Part shown: positions 1,535-43,988 of the stretch, piece by piece | Numbering within the stretch: position 1 is the first letter of the stretch | How the letters are laid out: each line of letters begins with the position of its first letter | IMG/VR virus record: IMGVR_UViG_3300012944_000032 | DNA: 43,988 bases | Reading direction: 5' to 3' (one strand) | From: a virus | The notes under the pieces: model-generated | Told to the model about the DNA's origin: nothing | Databases searched by the model: none | The model's input: the letters and a program-made list of their open reading frames with translations, nothing else | Position numbers and translations under genes: made by a program

Positions 1535-1965
1535 TGCACATTCTATCACTAAATTTCACATAAGAAATGATGTATAGTAGTGTGCAGTAGCAAGCAAAGA
1601 TGTAAATTACAATTCTAAATTGTACATTATGTCACCAGACTGCACACTTTAGCCAGTTTTGGCTCATTGTACACATTTGCATGTAATTGCACAATATTTC
1701 AATTGGCACGGCTTATGCCTATTACATATATGGTATGTGGCACATAGTTTGAACTGCATAAATCTGCACTGGCACGACTCTTGCCTTTACAGAATGACAC
1801 AGGGTTGCACTGGCATGATGTATGCTGTGTTCACTCTACTGCACATGTGCAATCCTGACTCAGCCGGTGTCATAGTGTGCAAGTCTTTCACATAGCTGCA
1901 CAATTCTTACTAAGAATTCATATCACAGGGGTATACATAGCTGCACGTAAGGTTCCATATGTGCA
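1535..1965. repeat. Dense array of TGCAC/GTGCA motifs in non-coding DNA
   Basis: At least 13 TGCAC/GTGCA occurrences counted by eye in about 430 bp. Includes the perfect palindrome TGCACATGTGCA (1840..1851), GTGCAC (about 1960), and ACATAGCTGCAC twice (1890..1901 and 1935..1946). Confidence 0.85.
1704..1826 (+). promoter_or_regulatory. Three to four GGCA-N7-TGCC dyads, equally readable as sigma54-like TGGCAC-N5-TTGC elements
   Basis: The sites are tTGGCACggcttATGCC (1704..1719), TGGCACgactcTTGCC (1770..1785, a perfect -24/-12 consensus), TGGCATgatgtATGCT (1811..1826), and a weaker TGGCACatagtTTGA (1738..1752). Confidence 0.5.
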
Positions 1966-2080
1966 CAAAATTTCCGGATATTAATCGTATTTGTGTCATC
2001 ATATTATTTAATCACATTTGTATGTTATCATTATTTAATTATTCATCAATTAAAAGCTGGTTCCATATGTGGTTCCATAC
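1951..2080 (+). repeat. GGTTCCATA(TGTG) repeated three times, flanking AT-rich direct repeats
   Basis: ggttccatatgtg occurs at 1951..1963 and 2059..2071, and ggttccatac at 2071..2080. Between them, ATCAT(AT)TATTTAAT occurs twice (about 1998..2013 and 2027..2040). Confidence 0.8.
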
Positions 2081-2167
2081 AACGTACTATGAATTATGAT
2101 GCTTTCAAAAAATGAAATCTTCAACGGCTACGCCGAGTTTTCCTAGGGTTTATGCGATGTTTACCTC

Positions 2168-2196
2168 TTGACAAACGGCTTCGCCGGGTGTATGAT
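2168..2196 (+). promoter_or_regulatory. Near-consensus sigma70 promoter for the rightward (late/structural) arm
   Basis: TTGACA(2168..2173)-aacggcttcgccgggtg(17)-TATGAT(2191..2196), about 45 nt upstream of the first plus-strand gene. Confidence 0.75.
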
Positions 2197-4125: not shown

Positions 4126-4373
4126 CTACTGCGGCGGTCATAGGTATTCTATCACTAGTCATTACATTTGCAATTTTTGTATTAAATGTCACATTTAAGT
4201 TAGGACATCACGCTGCCAGATTAGAAGCTCTGGAGAAGTGGCGTGATGGTATCAGAGATGATATGCATGAGATATCAGATAAGATGGAAGCAATGTTAAT
4301 TAACTTCCAAACATTAACTACACTAATTGAAGAACGAACTGAACGAAGAACATCAGCAAGGATGGCTCAGTGA
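4122..4373 (+). CDS. Small membrane protein (N-terminal TM helix plus coiled coil); holin or i-spanin-like candidate
   Basis: AAVIGILSLVITFAIFVLNV followed by a charged helical tail. ATGA-type overlaps on both sides. Confidence 0.6.
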   Translation: MTTAAVIGILSLVITFAIFVLNVTFKLGHHAARLEALEKWRDGIRDDMHEISDKMEAMLINFQTLTTLIEERTERRTSARMAQ

Positions 4374-4720
4374 AAAAGATTCTATTTAGTATTTTGTTTC
4401 TTCTATTTGCAGTGCCAGGATATAGCCAGGTTACAGCTACAGTGCAATGGAATATGCAGGAATCTCCTGCTACAGCACAAACATTTACTTACACATTGAA
4501 AATTGATGCGGCAGCTCCTACGACTCTTACCCCTGTCACCTGCAGCACAGTTAACGGAGTTAGCACTTGTAGTGCTTCTGTTGCTAATTATACTGTGGGT
4601 GTGCATACTGTTATCTTGACTGCATCAAATGCTAACGGCTCATCCTCTGGTACATTTGTTACTGGTGCTAATCCATCAGTGCCAACGGCCGGAAAAGTTA
4701 TTGTAATCATTATTCAGTAA
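4370..4720 (+). CDS. Secreted protein with a Sec signal peptide and an Ig/FN3-like beta domain
   Basis: MKKILFSILFLLFAVPGYSQ followed by a Thr/Ser/Ala-rich beta-strand pattern. Confidence 0.6.
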   Translation: MKKILFSILFLLFAVPGYSQVTATVQWNMQESPATAQTFTYTLKIDAAAPTTLTPVTCSTVNGVSTCSASVANYTVGVHTVILTASNANGSSSGTFVTGANPSVPTAGKVIVIIIQ

Positions 4721-4764
4721 TATCGCATCGCATGAACAATATCGCACCGCATCAATAAACATAA

Positions 4765-6375
4765 GTGGCTTTCACAACTGGAGAATGGAAACCTACTAGG
4801 AAACAAGAGATATTTCTATCTCTGCCATTATCAATTAAAGAAGCATTGTATGGTGGAGGAGCCGGTTCCGCCAAAACAGACGTTCTCTTAATCTACGCAT
4901 TAGTTCATAAATGGCATGAACATCCTGGGTTTAAGCAAGTGTTCATGCGTCGTACATTCCCTGAACTTCGTAATGAAGTGATTCCACGTAGTAGACAATT
5001 ATATCCTAAGTTTGGTGCAACATTAAATAAATCGGATATGGCATGGACATTCCCTGCGCCAGACCAAATTGGCGGAAGAGGATTGTCAAACGCGGGAGCA
5101 ATGATTTTCCTTGCACAGTGTGAGGACGAAAATGACGTACATAAATATGATTCTATGGAAATTAACTTATTTACTCCCGATGAGCTTACTTCTTTTCTTG
5201 AGTACATTTATTTGTACGTTGGGTTTACTCGTGTACGTACTAGTATCCCTGAACTCCCGGCAATAATTCGAGCCGCTGGCATGCCCGGTGGAGTAGGACA
5301 TACATTCACAAACAAAAGATTTGTATCACCGGCTAAGCCAGGCACTATCATTGTCGGACGTGGTGGAGTTAAACGCATTTATATTCACGCTACGTTAGCT
5401 GACAATCCTCACATCGACCCGGCCTACAGACAATCACTAGAAGCATTACCAGAAGCTGAAAAGAGAGCTAAGCTCTATGGGGACTGGAATGCTTATTCAG
5501 GTCAGGTATTTGACGAGTTCAGAGATAGAAGATATCCTGATGAACCAGATAATGCATTACATGTAATAGATGAATTTGAAATTCCAGCTTGGTGGCCTAG
5601 AATCCTCATTGGTGATTGGGGATTTGCGGCTATGACTTGGTTAGGTTGGGGAGCTATTAGTCCTAATAAAAGATTGTATATTTACAGAGAACAATCATGG
5701 ACTAAAACTAAGATTGAGGAATGGGCACCAATTGTTAGGGAATTGATTGATATTGACCATCCGAGAATGATTAAGTTTTGTAAATCTGCTGGCCAAGAGC
5801 ATGGTCAGGAACATACTATTCAGGAGCAGATTAGTGATGCTCTAGACTTCCCAATTGAGCTAACTAATAATAGTCCGGGCTCTAGAATCGCTGGCAAACA
5901 ACTAATTCATGAGTATATGAGATGGAGGTCAAAGCCAATCTCGATTAAGGAGAAAGCAGCATATAGTGAAGAGCACTCAATGTGGCTTCTTCGTAATAGA
6001 GGAATGAATGAATACAAGTCATACATGATGTCATTTATTGAGCCAGCAGAAGAATCTAATCTACCCAAGTTACAAATTTTTAGTTCCTGCAAGTTGCTCA
6101 TTGATGCTATTAAAGCATGTTCATACGACAAGAAGAAGATTGAGGATATTGCTGCATTCGCTGGTGATGACCCTATCGATGGACTTCGTTACTTGGTAGA
6201 TGCAGCAGAGAATTACTTTGAAATTGCGGCTGATGAATTCAAAAGGATTCAGAAGCAAGAAGAGTTAGTTCATAAGCTAAGCAGTGATAATGATTTTACT
6301 GCATTCTATAGACAGATGAGAACAGCTGAATCAGATGAATCATATAAACCAATTCGCATGTTTCATCATAGATAA
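4765..6375 (+). CDS. terL: Terminase large subunit
   Basis: GTG start. Walker A-like YGGGAGSAKTD. Nuclease-domain acidic motifs IGDWGF and GDDPIDGLRY. Located upstream of the portal. Confidence 0.88.
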   Translation: MAFTTGEWKPTRKQEIFLSLPLSIKEALYGGGAGSAKTDVLLIYALVHKWHEHPGFKQVFMRRTFPELRNEVIPRSRQLYPKFGATLNKSDMAWTFPAPDQIGGRGLSNAGAMIFLAQCEDENDVHKYDSMEINLFTPDELTSFLEYIYLYVGFTRVRTSIPELPAIIRAAGMPGGVGHTFTNKRFVSPAKPGTIIVGRGGVKRIYIHATLADNPHIDPAYRQSLEALPEAEKRAKLYGDWNAYSGQVFDEFRDRRYPDEPDNALHVIDEFEIPAWWPRILIGDWGFAAMTWLGWGAISPNKRLYIYREQSWTKTKIEEWAPIVRELIDIDHPRMIKFCKSAGQEHGQEHTIQEQISDALDFPIELTNNSPGSRIAGKQLIHEYMRWRSKPISIKEKAAYSEEHSMWLLRNRGMNEYKSYMMSFIEPAEESNLPKLQIFSSCKLLIDAIKACSYDKKKIEDIAAFAGDDPIDGLRYLVDAAENYFEIAADEFKRIQKQEELVHKLSSDNDFTAFYRQMRTAESDESYKPIRMFHHR

Positions 6376-7160: not shown

Positions 7161-9491
7161 ATGACAGCAAAAGAACAAAGAAATGATAAGGTTCGTAACT
7201 TGCTTAAGCAGGTTGCAAATCATTTCGACCAAGAGGATAGAGCCGCTCGTGAGCGTCAATTAAGGAATTGGCGGCGGCTCAAGCTCCTTTGGGAAGGATT
7301 TCAGAGAGTATGGTACTCTGAAGTTGCTCATGATTGGCGCATTTGGGACGAAGAGATTAGCAACGCCGATAACGACCAGGCGTTTTATGATAAACCAATC
7401 AACGTATTTCGTGCCTATTTGGAATCTCTAATAGCTGCATTGTCAATTACGATTCCGGGTATTAAATGTTATCCTGACGATGCAGATAATCCTTTAGATT
7501 TAAGTACAGCTAAAGCTGGTGATAAAATTGCAGAATTAATTTATAGACATAATGATGCACCTATTCTCTGGTTGCATGCATTGTATATTAATATGACTGA
7601 GGGTATGACTGCTTGCTACTCATATCCTAAAGCAGATAATAAATTTGGAACTTATAAAGAGAATGAATATAAAGATGAAACTTCAGAAGTTTACATTTGT
7701 CCATTCTGTCAGCAGCAATTAGATGATGATTTATTTACTAAGCAGGAAGTTGATGAGTTTCAGCCAGATGATGACGATGTAGAACTTCATGATATCATTC
7801 TGAATCAAAATAAAGTAGTTTGCCCACAGTGCGCAACAATGTTAGACCCAGACTTGCAGAAGAGTTCACTAGTTGTTACTAGACTTGTTGGACAGAAAGA
7901 TGTTCCAAAGTCTAGAATTTGCATGGAAGCATATGGTGGTTTGTACGTAAAGGTACCAAATTATGCGATGAAACAGGAAGATATTCCATATTTAATCTTT
8001 AGTTACGAAACACATTATTCTAATGCTCTTGACAGATATGAACATTTGAGAGCTAAGTATACTGGCACTGGCAAGATTGGTGCTGCTGGCGGAGGAATGT
8101 ACGACCCGTATGAGCAATGGGCTAGACTCTCACCTCAATATCGTGGTGAGTATCCTACTAATAATGTTACTGTTCGCAATTGTTGGCTTCGCACTTCTGC
8201 TTTTAATATTTTAGCTAACGAAGAAGATATTGCTTTATTGAAGAAAGAATATCCTGATGGGGCTAAATTAGTTCTAGTTAACGATGAATGGGCCGAAGAC
8301 GAAAATGAGAGTCTTGATGATTGCTGGACCATTATCAAGAATCCTCTATCTGATTACATTCATTATTATCCTACAGGCTCATTGCTAGTTAGTGTACAGG
8401 ATATCACAAGTGACTTGATTAGTTTGGTATTGCAAACGATTGAACATGGTATTCAGCAGACATTTGCTGACCCTGGGGTTTTGAATTTTGAGAAGTACCG
8501 CCAAGCTGAAACAATGCCTGGTGGGGTATATCCTGCCATTCCTAAGACTGGTAAGTCGGTTAGTGATGGATTTTTTGAGACTAGAACTGCTACGCTGAGT
8601 CAGGAAGTGTTGCCATTTTTCAATATGATTCAGACGCTAGGTCAATCAGTTTCAGGAGCACAGCCTAGCCTATTTGGTGGGCAGCTTAGCGGCTCGAGAA
8701 CTGCATCTGAGTATTCAATGTCTAGAGCACAAGCTCTGCAGAGACTTCAGAATACTTGGAAGACATATACTCTTTGGTGGAAGACAATCTTTGCTAAAGT
8801 TATCCCAATGTATATTAAAGAAGTTCAAGAAGATGAGAAATCTGTTGAAAAGAATGAACAGGGTAATTTTATCAATGTATTCATTCGTAAAGCAGAACTC
8901 GAAGGTAGAATTGGTCGTATTGAACTAGAAGCCAACGAGAATCTACCAATTACATGGTCTCAACGTAAAGATACTTATATGGATTTGCTAAAACTTCAAA
9001 ATCCAGAAATCCTGAAAGCTCTTGCAGACCCAGAGAACGTTAAGTCTCTTGTTGAAGCTATTGGACTTGATGACTTTACTGTTCCTGGAGAAGATGATAG
9101 ACAAAAGCAGTATGAAGAAATTAGACTTCTAATTAATTCTGAACCTATTACGGTACCGGCTGACCCACAGCAAGTGGTAATGGCGTCTATGCAAGGAATG
9201 CCGCCTCCCCTGGATATTGAATTACCATCAGTTGAAATTGATCCTGACTTAGATAATCATGATATTGAAGCAGAGACATGTCGTACTTATCTAGTATCTG
9301 ATGCTGGACGGTTACTTAAACTTGAGAACCCGCTTGGCTATAAGAACGTGTTACTGCATATGAAAATGCACATGCAGGAAATTAAAATGAGCATGGCTCC
9401 CCCACAACAGCCTGGAATGCCATCTCCACCACAGCCAGCAGGCAGTAATATGCCTCTAGCAGGAAATTCAAATGTTGCTGCACAAACTTAA
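7161..9491 (+). CDS. Portal protein (776 aa)
   Basis: Size and position (terminase, then this ORF, then scaffold, then capsid). Contains an inserted CxxC...CxxC element at 7698..7832. Confidence 0.7.
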   Translation: MTAKEQRNDKVRNLLKQVANHFDQEDRAARERQLRNWRRLKLLWEGFQRVWYSEVAHDWRIWDEEISNADNDQAFYDKPINVFRAYLESLIAALSITIPGIKCYPDDADNPLDLSTAKAGDKIAELIYRHNDAPILWLHALYINMTEGMTACYSYPKADNKFGTYKENEYKDETSEVYICPFCQQQLDDDLFTKQEVDEFQPDDDDVELHDIILNQNKVVCPQCATMLDPDLQKSSLVVTRLVGQKDVPKSRICMEAYGGLYVKVPNYAMKQEDIPYLIFSYETHYSNALDRYEHLRAKYTGTGKIGAAGGGMYDPYEQWARLSPQYRGEYPTNNVTVRNCWLRTSAFNILANEEDIALLKKEYPDGAKLVLVNDEWAEDENESLDDCWTIIKNPLSDYIHYYPTGSLLVSVQDITSDLISLVLQTIEHGIQQTFADPGVLNFEKYRQAETMPGGVYPAIPKTGKSVSDGFFETRTATLSQEVLPFFNMIQTLGQSVSGAQPSLFGGQLSGSRTASEYSMSRAQALQRLQNTWKTYTLWWKTIFAKVIPMYIKEVQEDEKSVEKNEQGNFINVFIRKAELEGRIGRIELEANENLPITWSQRKDTYMDLLKLQNPEILKALADPENVKSLVEAIGLDDFTVPGEDDRQKQYEEIRLLINSEPITVPADPQQVVMASMQGMPPPLDIELPSVEIDPDLDNHDIEAETCRTYLVSDAGRLLKLENPLGYKNVLLHMKMHMQEIKMSMAPPQQPGMPSPPQPAGSNMPLAGNSNVAAQT

Positions 9492-30841: not shown

Positions 30842-31013
30842 ATTCTATTTCATCAATTTCAATAATTACTTTATTTTTGCAATTAGTACATTCATATTGA
30901 CTTAGTAATTTAGTTGGCATATTTTCAGCTGCCATCCTATCAGAATGTTTCATATACACTTTAATGCTTTTGAATGCATGACTACAATTACCACAAACAA
31001 TCCTAATATTCAT
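30834..31013 (-). CDS. Small zinc-ribbon protein (59 aa)
   Basis: My translation is MNIRIVCGNCSHAFKS...YECTNCKNKVIIEIDEIEYE (CxxC...CxxC). ATGA overlap with the polymerase stop. Confidence 0.5.
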   Translation of the reverse strand: MNIRIVCGNCSHAFKSIKVYMKHSDRMAAENMPTKLLSQYECTNCKNKVIIEIDEIEYE

Positions 31014-33466
31014 ATTTTAATCGGTCTCATCTCAGAATAATTAGTGTCACTAAATTCAATTGAACATGGAATAGTTAACATGTAATCACGTTTCAAGCTA
31101 CAGCCAGAGAAATCAATTGGAACTTCAAAATGTTTCTTCATCAGCCTAGCATACGGTTCCCAGTTGTTAGCGGGAACCTGCATCTTTAGGCTATCATGGT
31201 CTTCACTTAGCCACATATGCTCTACATCGCCATTCAATTCATCTTCAATAGTTAATCCTGCACCTTGCACAAGATGTGCTACTGTTCTTTGCGGTATGTT
31301 TGCATATCCTTCTTTATAGAGCTGAGTGTCCATTCTTCCATTGAAGATACGAAGACCGCCATACGGGTCCACAATCGCTCTTGTGCTCTGGAGACAATCA
31401 ATGATATCCTTATGGAACTTATTTCTAATCCTTGGCGATGCGCCATGAAAAAGTTCAAGCATCTGACCAGAACGCCATTCAGATATAGACATAGGTATAT
31501 CGAACTTCTGAGCATCAGTATTGAAATTAACCATAAACTCATTTTTGCCCATGTCGTAATTCCCAGCGTGCCTAGTCTTTTTTCCACAGAACCTCTCAGG
31601 ACCATCCTTTTCCATTATGTCAACGACGGGAACAATACCAGTCGTCAGGACTAATTCTCTAGTATATCCAAATATCATTCCTGCCGTTCGTCTATGTATG
31701 TCAACCTTATCAAACGCCTCTAATAATTCCCAATCTTCTGCTAATACTGCCACGACCCTAGCTTCAGCTTGGCTGCTATCGGCTCCGATAATGACGTATC
31801 CTGGGTCGCAGATAAACATGCTTCGTATATCTTTGGCAAGTCTGCCATGTTTAGCGATAGTATGAAATGCCAATCCAATTTTCTTTGGTCTGACAGGCTT
31901 TTTGAGAATTCCAGTAGAGCTTCTGCAAGTCTCCGTTGCTGATATGCTGAAAGATGTTTTACACCTCCCATCATAATCTGGAGAGAAGCTGATGTTCCTT
32001 GACTTTTGAGTACGTATTCTTCGTTCTTCAAGGATGTTCGTAAGAATGTCTTTTTTCTCTTTTGTTTTAGCATGATTCCCCAGTAGTGCTACAATTGTGT
32101 CTTCAGATGTTGGATTGCGTTTCATAAATTTAAACTTCATTTCTTTATATAATAATTCAAACATCTGAGGATAGCTAGCTACATTTACTTCATGCCCTAC
32201 GAGTTCTGTTATCTTGTCATGAACTGCCTTAGCCATCTCTCCATACTTCTTAGATAGCTCTTTCTTTCTTGGCAAATCAATGAGGAAGCCGTTGTTCTCC
32301 ATCTTCAAATAGAATTTATGTTTCCTCATCATATACTTATAATAATAGTTCAACAGCTTTAATCCATAAACATCGCTTAAATCAATTAAGTCTTGTTCCT
32401 GTACCTCATCAATTTCATATGTAACGGCACAATCCTTAGCATTATATTTGAATAACTGTTCAACTTTCTGCTTGCCGAACTTAAACTCTTTGCCTTCCTC
32501 TTTGTAATAAGGCTCTCTTGTCCATAAAGACGATTGAACGTGGAGCTTCTTTTGTGGTAATTCTGGGAAGATAACTCTTGTCTTAATGAGGGTGTCGCTG
32601 TACAAGTTTGGGCATTGAAAACCAATAAGATTAAGTTTGAACTCGTCATACTTGAAGTTTTGCCCAATAATACGTAGCCGTCTGAGCTGGCTGTCAATCA
32701 ATCTCCATATTTCGTCAAGTTCATAGTCTCCCATATCAGTGAGCTTATGCTTACCAATAGTCCTAAGTAAAGGCACAGAGATTGCGTGGTGCCTGTTGAA
32801 AGCAAAGCCAACACAAACTGGCACGCAATTAATAGATTCGATATCAACCGACGCTTTGTCGAAGTTTTTGTATTTGTCGAAGAATCTGTAGAGGTCAAGC
32901 GAATTGTGACATATATCGAGTTCTTTATTCGGTAGAGATAACTGCCTACTTTTGGATTCTTCAACAGCCCGTGCAATATCTGATTCAATGAGCTTGATGT
33001 ACGTGTATTCAAGTCCACCTTTGTCACCTCGGTTAAACAGAGCGGCTGGATGTATAGTTGGGACTACCTTTGTAACGCCATCTTTAGCCAGGAGAATACT
33101 CCCGCGATAATTAAGTATGCCAGAATATCCAGTAATATGATTAAGAGCAGTATCCCCAATAGCCAAGATACACTTGGGTCTTCTCGGTTTGATTTCATCA
33201 TTCCAGAGATTCTCCGATTCCTTATTTATGTCAACACCTATTAAATGTAACTTCGTTAAGTCATTCATAGGTGGTTGATACTTGCATACATTAGTTATAT
33301 ATACATCACTTCGTCGAATATTTGCTTTTCTTAAACAATCATCAAATATTTCACCGGCTGGACCTGAGAATGGTACACCTGTCTCATGCTCATGTTTACC
33401 AGGTGCCTCTCCCACTGCCATTAAATCTGGCTCTAATGGACCGATCCCTCCTACGTATCTAGGCAT
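31010..33466 (-). CDS. Family A DNA polymerase with 3'-5' exonuclease and an N-terminal family-4 uracil-DNA glycosylase-like domain
   Basis: UDG4 motifs VGEAPGKHEHETGVPFSGPAGEIF and TIHPAA. Exo I motif VDIESIN. Pol motif A GADSSQAEARVVA. Motif C-like EDHDSL. Confidence 0.9.
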   Translation of the reverse strand: MPRYVGGIGPLEPDLMAVGEAPGKHEHETGVPFSGPAGEIFDDCLRKANIRRSDVYITNVCKYQPPMNDLTKLHLIGVDINKESENLWNDEIKPRRPKCILAIGDTALNHITGYSGILNYRGSILLAKDGVTKVVPTIHPAALFNRGDKGGLEYTYIKLIESDIARAVEESKSRQLSLPNKELDICHNSLDLYRFFDKYKNFDKASVDIESINCVPVCVGFAFNRHHAISVPLLRTIGKHKLTDMGDYELDEIWRLIDSQLRRLRIIGQNFKYDEFKLNLIGFQCPNLYSDTLIKTRVIFPELPQKKLHVQSSLWTREPYYKEEGKEFKFGKQKVEQLFKYNAKDCAVTYEIDEVQEQDLIDLSDVYGLKLLNYYYKYMMRKHKFYLKMENNGFLIDLPRKKELSKKYGEMAKAVHDKITELVGHEVNVASYPQMFELLYKEMKFKFMKRNPTSEDTIVALLGNHAKTKEKKDILTNILEERRIRTQKSRNISFSPDYDGRCKTSFSISATETCRSSTGILKKPVRPKKIGLAFHTIAKHGRLAKDIRSMFICDPGYVIIGADSSQAEARVVAVLAEDWELLEAFDKVDIHRRTAGMIFGYTRELVLTTGIVPVVDIMEKDGPERFCGKKTRHAGNYDMGKNEFMVNFNTDAQKFDIPMSISEWRSGQMLELFHGASPRIRNKFHKDIIDCLQSTRAIVDPYGGLRIFNGRMDTQLYKEGYANIPQRTVAHLVQGAGLTIEDELNGDVEHMWLSEDHDSLKMQVPANNWEPYARLMKKHFEVPIDFSGCSLKRDYMLTIPCSIEFSDTNYSEMRPIKI

Positions 33467-34680: not shown

Positions 34681-34896
34681 TTATCGTCCCTCACATGCGA
34701 TGCATGCATTTGCAGTCATAACAGCCTCCCTAACCTTACGAATAGCGGCTGATTGGTCTGCTGATGGTACCGTATTATCTAGAATAGAACCAGCTAATAC
34801 TCGTGCAGCGTCCCTAATTTCCTGATACTGCTGAATCTGTTCAGGTCTAGGAGCGTGATACGTAAACCAGTTTTCTAAATCATTCATTGAAATCAT
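34681..34896 (-). CDS. Conserved phage protein of unknown function (71 aa)
   Basis: The FTYHAP...PEQ...Y..IRDAA...AIRKVREAVMTANACIA pattern recurs in many phages, from memory. I cannot name the family. Confidence 0.6.
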   Translation of the reverse strand: MISMNDLENWFTYHAPRPEQIQQYQEIRDAARVLAGSILDNTVPSADQSAAIRKVREAVMTANACIACEGR

Positions 34897-39580: not shown

Positions 39581-40087
39581 TTATCTCTTCACATCTATGA
39601 AATCTTGCCAACTAATTACATTGCATTCATAAATTTCTGCAAGTTTGCTGATTTTAATATTAAATTTACCTACCCATTCCAGAAATTCATTTGAACCAAC
39701 CACACTAATCTCTTTTATATTAAATAATGTTTCTATTTTTGCATACTCAGACCTATATCCTGCTATATGAATGGCTACTTTACCCCACTGTTTAATAATT
39801 CCAGGCATGTTGTAGTAGTTGCTGTAGTTGTTGTTGTAGTAGTAGTTGCTGTATTTGTAGCTGTAATTGTAGCTGTAATTGTTGTTGTAGCTGTAGTAGT
39901 TATAAGAATATATGCCAGAATCTTCTGATTTAACTAGGTGTGGCCCTTCAAATTTAGACCATTTATAATCTTGATTTTCTGAAAATAAAGTTTCATCATT
40001 TCTAATACTATTTCTCCAATTTCTATATCCGGTAACCGCCTCTGATTCATCTATCTGTTTGAATTCTATAAAATCTGGCAAGCACAT
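39581..40087 (-). CDS. Conserved-type phage protein carrying a roughly 37-aa Asn/Tyr/Ser low-complexity insert
   Basis: GIYSYNYYSYNNNYSYNYSYKYSNYYYNNNYSNYYNM lies between VTGYRNWR... and IKQWGKVAIHIAGYRSEYAKI. The DNA at about 39808..39905 is an imperfect GTAGTT/GTAGCT repeat. Confidence 0.65.
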   Translation of the reverse strand: MCLPDFIEFKQIDESEAVTGYRNWRNSIRNDETLFSENQDYKWSKFEGPHLVKSEDSGIYSYNYYSYNNNYSYNYSYKYSNYYYNNNYSNYYNMPGIIKQWGKVAIHIAGYRSEYAKIETLFNIKEISVVGSNEFLEWVGKFNIKISKLAEIYECNVISWQDFIDVKR

Positions 40088-42279: not shown

Positions 42280-42606
42280 TTACTTTGCTACTTCAACTTT
42301 CGAGTCTGTTGATGCGATGCGAGGTGAATTGAACGCTGTCATACTCTCATAAGTATCTAGAATGAGAGATTCAAGCTGCCCAATCTGTGACTCTTCACTC
42401 GGACGAAGAAAAAAGAACGGCTTGCTTTCATCATTTCTCTTCACAATTGATGCAGGAAATAACACGAATAAACCTTTTTCCTTATCATCACAGATTGTGA
42501 ATCCAACCATGTGGAAGCCGCTAAGGAATCCCTCTTCAAATTCAATAGCTGCTTTCGCTACTCGATTGCCTTTCCTCATCAAGAAAGGTTCTACCTTGAT
42601 TTTCAT
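42280..42606 (-). CDS. SpoVG-like nucleic-acid-binding protein
   Basis: RVAKAAIEFEEGF...ICDDKEKGLFVLFP...ILDTY parallels SpoVG (RMRAIASITLD...IDGNNGLFVAMP...VLNEY). Confidence 0.5.
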   Translation of the reverse strand: MKIKVEPFLMRKGNRVAKAAIEFEEGFLSGFHMVGFTICDDKEKGLFVLFPASIVKRNDESKPFFFLRPSEESQIGQLESLILDTYESMTAFNSPRIASTDSKVEVAK

Positions 42607-42631
42607 CTTATCTCTCCGTTTGCTGTTTCAC

Positions 42632-42658
42632 GTTCATGCGATGTTTGTTCATGCGATG
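42632..42658 (-). promoter_or_regulatory. Two exact tandem copies (15-bp period) of CATCGCATGAAC upstream of the SpoVG-like gene
   Basis: Plus-strand gttcatgcgatg occurs at 42632..42643 and 42647..42658, 25 nt from the ATG at 42606. Confidence 0.7.
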
Positions 42659-42665
42659 CGTTGCG

Positions 42666-43304
42666 CTAGAGCTTACTTTTGAATGTTAGTGCTGCCGGAT
42701 TGAATGGTGACGCTATCGCGTCAGGTTTCTTTACTTCCACCTGAACTGCTTTTGTCTCTGTTACTGGAGTGTTGAACGTAACAACCTTGAGGTTTGCTTC
42801 TGTTGCTTTACGCTCAAGATTGTTAATCATCTCCTTAACAGTCTCTTCGTCAATGCCTGCATTGAGCAATTGCATTCTCATCTTATCCATCTTGCTCATT
42901 CGTTCTTTACGAACTTTTACGGCATTGATAGCATCTGAAGTGACTACGTCTGGTCCTGAAGGAGTAATAACCCACTCCTTCTTACCTGACTTAGCTTTTC
43001 TCTCACGCAATTCATCATCGGCAGCGGCTAGAGTCGCCTTTGCTTCAAATGCAATCTGAGAGAGATTTTCTCTGTGCTCTCTTAACTGAGTTATATCCAT
43101 GTCCTTAACAAAGATTTTACCTCTGTTATAGAACTGAGCATATAACTCTTCTTGTGGTGTCATGTACCCCCAATCAATGAATATTCCACGTTTGATTGCT
43201 ACTAAACCTCGAAGATAATGACTTAACGAAGACTCCACATTGCATACTCTGCAATATATTGTTAAGTCATCATTTTCGAAATTGCAATCCTTACAGTGCC
43301 ACAT
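42666..43304 (-). CDS. Protein with an N-terminal RanBP2-type zinc finger
   Basis: WHCKDCNFENDDLTIYCRVC fits W-x-C-x2-C-x3-N-x6-C-x2-C exactly. The rest is helical and charged. Confidence 0.6.
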   Translation of the reverse strand: MWHCKDCNFENDDLTIYCRVCNVESSLSHYLRGLVAIKRGIFIDWGYMTPQEELYAQFYNRGKIFVKDMDITQLREHRENLSQIAFEAKATLAAADDELRERKAKSGKKEWVITPSGPDVVTSDAINAVKVRKERMSKMDKMRMQLLNAGIDEETVKEMINNLERKATEANLKVVTFNTPVTETKAVQVEVKKPDAIASPFNPAALTFKSKL

Positions 43305-43306
43305 TA

Positions 43307-43510
43307 CTAATACTTGATGATGTTCTTATTTGATTTCTGAGCAATAGAAGCGAGAACTTCTGAGTATGCTGATGTAAATGCTAGCTTCTGTTTGTCCGAT
43401 GTTAGTTCGCGATTGACCTTATCTCGATTGAGCCTACTTCTGTGCCTCCTGCGGAGGCAATCTTTAGCCTTTGCTTTTTCTTGATTCTCCTTTGAATTGA
43501 AAAACTTCAT
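43307..43510 (-). CDS. Small basic protein (67 aa), first gene of the early arm; DNA-binding regulator candidate
   Basis: Internal ATG of track ORF 43307..43693. Sequence is MKFFNSKENQEKAKAKDCLRRRHRSRLNRDKVNRE... The upstream extension is only a translation of the repeat array. Confidence 0.55.
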   Translation of the reverse strand: MKFFNSKENQEKAKAKDCLRRRHRSRLNRDKVNRELTSDKQKLAFTSAYSEVLASIAQKSNKNIIKY

Positions 43511-43554: not shown

Positions 43555-43614
43555 GTGTCGGAGCGTGTCGGAAAGTGTCGGATTGTGTCGGAACGTGTCG
43601 GAAAGTGTCAAAAC
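43555..43614 (-). repeat. 10-bp phased array: five CCGACAC cores plus one degenerate unit
   Basis: Plus strand reads GTGTCGGAgc GTGTCGGAaa GTGTCGGAtt GTGTCGGAac GTGTCGGAaa GTGTCAAAac. Inverted relative to the CGACACATTA array. Confidence 0.95.
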
Positions 43615-43664
43615 GTGCATCCGTCCGCAAGTTGTTGTCCCACTTGGGGTTGCGCCACAAACGG

Positions 43665-43865: not shown

Positions 43866-43988
43866 AGTCTCGAAAAATCAACAGGTTGCGGTCGGGCGGA
43901 CGTTCTTTTCTGTTACGACACATTACGACACATTACGACACATTACGACACATTACGAGCGACGTTTCGCGTAAGATTCGCTTCTGAG
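43866..43988. repeat. Right copy of the exact 123-bp terminal direct repeat
   Basis: Identical to 1..123. Implies a 43,865-bp genome unit. Confidence 0.95.
43913..43962 (+). repeat. Second copy of the CGACACATTA x4 array, within the right terminal repeat
   Basis: Identical to 48..97. Confidence 0.95.

Follow-up and report, generated by a model that had tools for sequence, protein, structure and literature searches.

The C1 repressor of phage P1 has 22 dispersed operators, asymmetric 17-bp sites with the consensus ATTGCTCTAATAAATTT (PMC8546580). By analogy this is the closest working comparison for the element studied here, a 12-bp word, CATCGCATGAAC, that occurs with its variants in six copies (termed A1, A2, B1, B2, C and D) in the uncultivated phage IMGVR_UViG_3300012944_000032. 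The whole 43,988-nt stretch of that record was analyzed, and is referred to as the window. We conclude that the motif is a genuine cis-regulatory word, restricted to certain lineages within a novel family of soil phages. As with the C1 operators, the word is asymmetric and its copies are dispersed, in either orientation and single or paired, with some sites next to promoters and others inside transcription units. The sequences are unrelated, however, and here there appear to be only six candidate sites, all within 6.3 kb, of which only D adjoins a recognizable promoter. Moreover, neither a C1-like gene nor any recognizable repressor was found here, and no lysogeny functions were seen in the genes scanned.

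Promoter-proximal sites for phage regulators that link early and late promoters are known for phi29 p4 (at the late A3 promoter), lambda CII (TTGC-N6-TTGC at the -35 region) and the Mor and C proteins of Mu. The present word resembles these in being short, phage-specific and placed at or upstream of the -35 hexamer of a sigma70-type promoter driving a whole genome arm, with more copies inside or after genes of the other transcription unit. In contrast, the known sites are dyads or repeats on either side of the -35 hexamer of weak promoters, whereas here a single asymmetric copy lies at a near-consensus promoter, and the other copies have no recognizable promoter. In the polycistronic mRNA of phages there are also translational operators, such as those of T4 RegA, and termination-reinitiation coupling. 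Like these, the word is found as sense, unstructured, A/C-rich sequence between packed genes, where short open reading frames (mini-ORFs) end by the downstream start. Unlike RegA-type operators, which overlap the start codon or ribosome-binding site, the copies lie 8-52 nt away, and one conserved copy (D) is not transcribed in sense. Finally, the short repeats cluster around a control, origin-like region as iterons and parS sites do, but this genome has separate iteron arrays with a 10-bp period, and the word is non-palindromic, unlike parS, and has no helical phasing.

The motif family

The exact 12-mer occurs three times in the window, at 4726-4737 on the plus strand and at 42632-42643 and 42647-42658 on the minus strand, compared with 0.01 expected from dinucleotide shuffles. 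The two minus-strand copies form cluster A. A1 (42647-42658) follows the gene of a 212-aa protein, and is preceded by CGCAA-CGCAT pentamers that begin right behind the TAG (42666-42668) of that gene. A2 (42632-42643) follows at a distance of 15 bp, and 25 nt separate it from the ATG (42606) of a gene encoding a 108-aa 'SpoVG-like' protein. The plus-strand copy, B1, is located in the 44-nt spacer between the gene at 4370-4720 and that of the terminase large subunit (TerL), 27 nt before its GTG start at 4765, and B2 (CACCGCATCAAT, three mismatches; 4745-4756, plus strand) lies 19 bp from B1 and 8 nt before the same GTG. The other two copies have one mismatch each. C (CATCGCATCAAC; 42308-42319, minus strand) is in the variable 3' tail of the SpoVG-like gene, 52 nt before the ATG (42255) of the SNF2 gene, and D (CATCGCATAAAC; 2148-2159, minus strand) is inverted relative to the plus-strand arm, 8 nt upstream of a TTGACA hexamer at 2168. 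The exact, one-mismatch and degenerate copies had been listed in a preliminary description of this DNA, and all their coordinates and distances, together with the 15-bp tandem period, were verified. A possible partial copy of uncertain status (TGCATCGCATgtgag; 34695-34704, minus strand) lies at the 3' end of an Acb2-like gene, before a 156-nt gap.

When the 15-mer CGCATCGCATGAACA was searched with up to three mismatches we found five matches, with 0.95 expected, all of them in the loci named above and sense to the local genes. A search of both strands allowing mismatches, with a shuffled control, had been proposed as a check, and the observation is confirmed. The consensus AYCGCATNAAY, derived post hoc, matches exactly the six copies genome-wide, with 0.37 expected. 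Allowing it one mismatch adds 12 matches where about 10 are expected, that is, at chance level only, and the family is therefore discrete, with no fringe of weaker copies around it. Two-mismatch matches within the terminase gene (4910 and 4941) were rejected as sites, being conserved coding sequence. A motif-like inverted repeat at 4913-4950 (plus strand), GCATGAAC-N19-GTTCATGC, encodes the conserved KWHEHP...VFMRRT of the terminase, and it recurs in distant TerL genes, which marks it as a coding coincidence. A literature search for the word returned primers only.

The first and last 123 nt of the window are identical, and the window is therefore a circular assembly of a 43,865-bp genome. Such an assembly carries no terminus information. 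The ENA contig ERZ27253147:k141_3893493 has the identical sequence. The genome has a GC content of 39%, and its genes are tightly packed in two divergent arms. The plus-strand arm has genes from 2239 to 28381, with the terminase large subunit at 4765 followed by the structural genes. The minus-strand arm runs from about 43510 down to 28371, and its products include an SNF2 helicase, a PD-(D/E)XK nuclease, an AAA_24 protein, a PolA-UDG fusion and a DUF3987 primase-helicase. There are three near-consensus sigma70-type promoters, at 43693-43665 (minus), 1154-1126 (minus) and 2168-2196 (plus). The first of these, the leftward early promoter TTGACT-17-TATAAT, belongs to the operon of cluster A and precedes the cluster by about 1 kb.

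The six copies occupy four loci, all within a 6.3-kb arc (14% of the circle) that spans the circular junction around the divergent control region. Non-coding DNA holds three of these loci, although the genome is nearly free of spacers. Only four intergenic gaps of at least 40 nt exist inside the arms, and two of these are made up of the motif, in tandem form in both. The word has no dyad symmetry, and five copies are sense and one inverted. The preliminary description had held that a 12-mer should not recur in 44 kb by chance. This argument has to be tempered: dispersed exact 16-mer pairs are not rare here, with five in the genome against about 1.1 in Markov-2 controls (maximum five), four of the five in coding DNA. 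A dispersed exact repeat is by itself weak evidence of function. It is the occupancy of the gaps, the tandem form in both, the clustering and the conservation in relatives that make the family non-random.

Copy D and the rightward promoter

The presumed target of copy D is the rightward promoter of the plus-strand arm, TTGACA-17-TATGAT (2168-2196). Directly upstream of D there is a terminator-like GC hairpin and T-run (2121-2142, plus strand), of which the T-run is invariant while the stem varies with compensation. D thus lies between terminator and -35 hexamer, at about -44 to -55 relative to the inferred transcription start. Being 3' of a conserved plus-strand terminator, 5' of the promoter and antisense to the motif, it is outside any predicted sense transcript, and this favors a reading at the level of DNA.

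Copy D is a phylogenetic footprint, as judged by comparison with related phages. Neither its position nor the 8 nt between it and TTGACA differ among the window and the related loci L028/L078 and L073. It is the exact 12-mer in L028/L078 (so that 11 of 12 columns are identical between the window and L028), ATTAATGCGATA in L073, and the degenerate TGTTGCATAAAT in L144. The L073 lineage is represented in SRR26786857 and the L144 lineage in SRR13378650 (45,895 nt). On aligning the window, L028 and L073, nine of the 12 motif columns are invariant, compared with four of 17 in the promoter spacer, four of 14 in the hairpin and eight of 21 in the 5' untranslated region (UTR). The -35 hexamer is invariant in the same alignment. 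D is conserved in the manner of the -35 and -10 hexamers, and the neighboring non-coding bases are not.

A further 25 relatives have a constant promoter scaffold, comprising in order GGTTCCAT, an inverted repeat TTTCA-N5-TGAAA, the GC hairpin with its T-run, and the -35 and -10 hexamers, while the approximately 12 nt at the D slot are lineage-specific. The sequence at the position of D in other lineages is unrelated, as expected if operator and regulator specificities diverge together. Scans of metagenome contigs and IMG/VR with D-type patterns returned the 3300009012 lineage (see below) and chance matches only, and in relatives lacking the motif a search for lineage-specific repeated words at the equivalent slot gave only chance 9-mers. 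Two other descriptions of D were rejected. A PhoP box (GGTTTA-N5-TGTTTA) is not supported since relatives keep the middle ATGCGAT and not the GTTTA half-sites, and transferring the antisense-promoter geometry of D to A, B and C yields weak, unconvincing hexamers (7-8 of 12).

The surroundings of D contain several further elements. Within the 17-nt spacer of the rightward promoter lies a GC-rich hairpin (CGGC-TTC-GCCG; 2176-2186, plus strand), near-duplicate in the window of the terminator stem (CGGC-TAC-GCCG); relatives have hairpins of different sequence at the same place. Upstream of the promoter there is a mini transcription unit (1951-2142, plus strand), conserved family-wide and composed of GGTTCCAT repeats (1951, 2059 and 2072), an invariant TATGAT (2097), the TTTCA-N5-TGAAA repeat, and the GC hairpin with TTTT. 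This unit may be a short non-coding RNA or an insulator. Further upstream, at about 1704-1826 (plus strand), are three TGGCA(C/T)-N5-(T/A)TGC elements that could be sigma54 -24/-12 promoters or TGGCA-N7-TGCC dyads, and four similar elements are conserved in L078 (6348-6535).

The motif in related phages

No cultured close phage was found, with no megablast match in GenBank and best TerL matches at most 30% identical, and a TerL search of bacterial genomes aimed at inferring the host gave only a spurious 30-residue match. There are hundreds of relatives in IMG/VR and other metagenome collections. A second motif-bearing lineage comprises IMGVR_UViG_3300009012_000002 and ENA CRIT18 scaffolds (loci L028, L078-L080 and L127), where TerL is 82%, the SpoVG-like protein 85% and the 212-aa protein 59% identical to those of the window. 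Here a cluster CGCACCGCATGAAC-AT-GCGTGAAC-N9-CATAGCATTAAC lies in L078 immediately 3' of a stop codon behind the homologue of the 212-aa gene, and its flanks are otherwise unalignable with those of cluster A. In a third lineage, L144, the degenerate D is accompanied by GTTAGCATGAAT behind the 212-aa gene, so that both sites have drifted alike.

Most relatives are different. The spacer before the SpoVG-like gene is 8-27 nt in most of them and lacks the motif, and this includes lineages with an 86-92% identical SpoVG-like protein. At the terminase, their start codon always overlaps or adjoins the stop codon of the preceding gene (TAGTG or TAATG); the 44-nt gap is found in this genome alone, and no relative with a 58-87% identical TerL has cluster B. 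Copies B and C are thus specific to this genome, C having arisen in the variable C-terminal tail of the SpoVG-like gene. Gene content at the junctions varies as well, with zero to three extra small genes between the 212-aa and SpoVG-like genes, an extra 47-aa gene or spacers of 96-190 nt before SNF2, and different genes before the terminase. A scan of IMG/VR with the 16-mer gave four unrelated chance matches. Conservation in relatives, which the preliminary description had proposed as a check, therefore holds in part: D and cluster A are kept in a small subclade, but most relatives have neither the motif nor its spacers.

Interpretation as operators

We tentatively favor the interpretation that the six copies are operators, double-stranded DNA sites of one sequence-specific regulator of phage or host that our searches did not single out, and would put this at slightly below an even chance. 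Recognition of double-stranded DNA by one regulator is the simplest single function, because D is inverted, outside any predicted sense transcript and at a fixed 8 nt from the -35 hexamer. The recognized word is most likely asymmetric and about 11 bp long, with a core (A)YCGCAT-N-AAY. As the copies are unevenly spaced (by 12, 15 and 19 bp) and not palindromic, binding would be as monomers or as a flexible head-to-tail array.

A regulator bound at D would modulate the rightward, structural-gene promoter. The tandem copies within operons (after the second early gene, before SNF2 and before the terminase) might form a roadblock or attenuator of read-through transcription, or be a looping partner for D, and either roadblock or looping would couple expression of the early and late arms. 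Copies B and C would be recent gains in this genome.

A phage-specific promoter or operator, or a translational operator at the RNA level, had been proposed as the function in the preliminary description. The conserved footprint at D favors an operator. A phage-specific promoter does not fit, as the motif has no -10 or -35 partner at a consistent distance, its distances to the start codons are variable, and no polymerase or sigma factor was found among about 40 proteins scanned.

A number of observations weigh against operators of a single regulator. A model at the DNA level does not predict that all five in-operon copies are sense, nor that the first copy of each cluster opens an ATG mini-ORF. 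The rightward promoter is near consensus (11 of 12) and should need no activator, and a position around -50 would be unusual for a repressor. Most relatives keep the same promoter architecture without the motif, which must therefore be dispensable for the basic program. The comparative support comes from three or four lineages only, and the copies in the 3300009012 lineage are identical among themselves, adding no information, so that they say nothing on microdiversity. Lastly, no DNA-binding family (helix-turn-helix, ribbon-helix-helix or other) was detected among about 40 proteins scanned against Pfam and PHROGs, and no gene was found whose presence or absence tracks the motif. The early products to consider first as binders would be a basic 67-aa protein (43307-43510), the product of 523-1095, the 212-aa protein and the SpoVG-like protein.

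Alternative explanations

The orientation and the mini-ORFs would be explained if the element acted on RNA or translation, either as an unstructured mRNA word bound by an RNA-binding protein or as the start of a Met-Asn mini-ORF. In the latter version, ribosomes ending the upstream gene would restart and be delivered to the next start codon, restoring coupling where gene insertions had opened spacers. We consider this rather unlikely, yet it is the alternative that fares best. The motif regions fold less stably than shuffled sequences (z-scores +0.5 to +2.0), and have no Rfam match at gathering score. Within cluster A the mini-ORF MNKHRMNVKQQTER (42608-42652, minus strand) starts at an ATG inside A1, and the 15-bp period leaves the ATG of A2 in frame; its TAA is 1 nt before the ATG of the SpoVG-like gene. 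Within cluster B the mini-ORF MNNIAPHQ (4732-4758, plus strand) starts inside B1, and its TAA is 6 nt before the terminase GTG, a start that has no Shine-Dalgarno sequence. Met-Asn mini-ORFs are also present behind the 212-aa gene in L078 (MNMREQTSA, then stop) and L144 (MNRLT, then stop). The mini-ORFs of the in-operon clusters start 8-13 nt after the upstream stop codon. A role for B as ribosome relay is attractive because in every relative translation of the terminase is coupled to that of the gene before it, by the overlapping or abutting codons that only this genome has replaced by a gap.

However, copy D is inverted, outside predicted transcripts and without an ATG in the window, and yet it is the best-conserved copy. 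C, B2 and the third copy in L078 also lack an ATG, and the conserved core (ATCGCAT) is mostly upstream of the ATG where there is one. A mini-ORF adjoins the next start codon at A and B, but not at C or D, nor in L078, where it stops 34 nt before a gene that has a strong Shine-Dalgarno sequence. Finally, the SpoVG-like gene has GGAGAG and so needs no relay.

Alternatively, the copies may have no selected function. They would then have arisen by replication slippage or short duplication (CGCAT pentamers, units of 15 and 19 nt) and by illegitimate recombination where gene insertion is frequent, and would persist as scars at the junctions of mosaic modules. The copies do lie at variable gene junctions, B and C are unique to this genome, and A and B have a common 16-mer and about 30 nt of near-identity with no similarity in the flanks, in a genome where dispersed 16-mer repeats are not rare. 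This is unlikely when set against the footprint at D, held at a fixed -35 distance in three lineages, against cluster A, kept in L078 despite flanks diverged beyond alignment, and against the covariation of D and A in L144. Nor is the word borne by a cassette upstream of the terminase, because a homologue of the gene upstream of B is present in another phage (L120/L121) without the motif.

A dual role would combine the first two functions considered: the word would be a promoter-proximal operator in DNA, and on the mRNA its ATG-bearing copies would relay terminating ribosomes, making it a portable 'coupling patch' that re-establishes coupling, for instance at the terminase, in any spacer opened by gene insertion. 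We regard this as quite improbable.

Slightly less probable still is a promoter element for a modified host RNA polymerase (a phage sigma factor, a sigma appropriator or a MotA-like activator box) that would give middle or late transcripts. The sites precede the block of replication genes and the first structural gene, and the TGAACA part of the word resembles TTGACA. On the other hand, no -10-like hexamer follows any copy at a consistent distance, and on manual reading there was neither a -10/-35 partner at constant offset downstream of the sense copies nor a TAnnnT at fixed offset. Promoter and terminator scans found no sigma70-like promoter above background in either direction at A, B or C, and no terminator-like site. 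The copies are placed at no constant distance from the following start codon (8, 25, 27 and 52 nt), and only 8 nt (B2) or 25 nt (A2) are left before the starts. D points away from the gene beside it, the same genes are expressed in relatives that lack the word, and no phage RNA polymerase or sigma factor gene was detected among the 40 or so proteins scanned.

Read-through of the terminator would place GUUUAUGCGAUG, from D, in a plus-strand RNA that might pair with the sense copies in mRNA. D is the sole inverted copy, an RNA from it would form 12 base pairs, one of them G-U, with each of A1, A2 and B1, and the sequences of D and A covary between lineages. But D lies 3-5 nt past the expected point of termination and upstream of the start of the next promoter, so that it would be transcribed by read-through only, and the fixed 8-nt distance to the -35 hexamer would have no explanation. 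This antisense pairing seems very improbable.

The pac and cosB regions of SPP1, lambda and P1 typically contain repeated binding boxes, and tandem repeats directly upstream of the large terminase gene might thus form a pac- or cos-type array for the small terminase subunit, the least probable of these explanations by our estimate: cluster B is in no relative, the conserved copies are distant from the terminase start (D by 2.6 kb, and A by 5.9 kb across the circular junction), no gene product was recognized as a small terminase subunit, and the circular assembly holds no terminus information. Some known sites were rejected. A parS site is a 16-bp palindrome, absent here where the word is asymmetric; by eye only a right half-site is resembled (ACGTGAAACA after A2), and no ParB was found. 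The spacing is wrong (14 nt, by eye) for an extracytoplasmic function (ECF) sigma site (AAC...CGT), and MotA-box, marbox and IHF readings do not fit, again by eye.

Neighboring proteins and other features

The SpoVG-like protein had been put forward as a candidate binder because its own gene carries the double site. This is not supported, as lineages whose orthologues are 86-92% identical have no copy of the motif, either in front of that gene or at the promoter. Its homology to SpoVG is itself unproven. The match of PF04026 to the 108-aa protein is nearly full-length but has E = 0.14 and 12.8 bits against a cut-off of 29.6, and hhalign with a SpoVG sequence gave a probability of 23%. An exact look-up of the protein found it not on record, and one JGI record carries the name SpoVG. 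There was no sequence match in the PDB, even with a profile. In a confident AlphaFold2 (AF2) model (pLDDT 81) the chain folds into six strands plus a C-terminal helix, and Foldseek returned no SpoVG structure for it, the best match being the T5 PC4-like single-stranded DNA-binding protein (E = 0.05, TM 0.3). The family (here 42280-42606, minus strand) has 264 homologues, all metagenomic and with no Pfam domain, and from the model it may be a new small nucleic-acid-binding fold beside the replication genes.

The 212-aa early protein (42666-43304, minus strand) has an N-terminal CxxC...CxxC zinc ribbon, modeled to superpose locally on NZF/RanBP2-type zinc fingers, followed by a long coiled coil (Histone_HNS_N, E = 6.5e-5, below cut-off); no significant fold match was found for its structure. 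Its gene immediately precedes cluster A in the window, and a short unannotated ORF lies in between in L078.

Two iteron arrays of 10-bp period, built on a common CGACAC core, lie at 43555-43619 and 48-92 (= 43913-43957). The first, six copies of (C)CGACAC, is in the 5' UTR of the early promoter at 43693-43665, directly downstream of the promoter; the second, four to five copies of TTACGACACA, lies about 300 nt upstream. Both are kept in L078 (about 7950-8010 and 8295-8350), and are candidates for an origin or operator array.

Elsewhere in the minus-strand arm, a 71-aa product (34681-34896) matches the Acb2/Tad1 hairpin domain (PF24729, E = 2e-12, above gathering score), and is likely an anti-CBASS/anti-Thoeris nucleotide sponge; a homologue is also called in the relative L146. 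The 818-aa protein at 31010-33466 is an N-terminal uracil-DNA glycosylase domain fused to a family A DNA polymerase. A 168-aa protein (39581-40087) has a low-complexity core rich in Tyr, Asn and Ser (YSYNYYSYNNNYSYNYSYKYSNYYYNNNYSNYYN), which is encoded by 12-bp tandem repeats (39799-39916). It was found in the window and in the 3300009012 lineage but nowhere else; these are the two motif-bearing lineages whose sequence is long enough for a comparison.

Significance

As a phenomenon this is a fairly ordinary phage control element, a solid but conventional regulatory motif whose mechanism is inferential. From the alignments, what appears new is the word at D as a footprint by the rightward promoter, with cluster A kept in a relative and degenerate versions at both places in a third lineage, as well as the absence of the motif from most relatives and the apparent restriction of the B and C copies to this genome. 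The family is known from metagenomes only, from hundreds of contigs with at most 30% terminase identity to cultured phages, and almost all the early genes of this phage are unannotatable. A conserved dispersed operator would give a handle on the timing of its two divergent operons, and the motif is usable as a DNA pull-down bait for the regulator. Should the mini-ORF explanation be true, it would show how a phage repairs translational coupling after acquiring genes. Across the family, the aligned promoters have a fixed scaffold with one lineage-variable slot, which is filled here by the motif. This suggests that the specificity of the regulator may be diverging between lineages, akin to immunity specificities.

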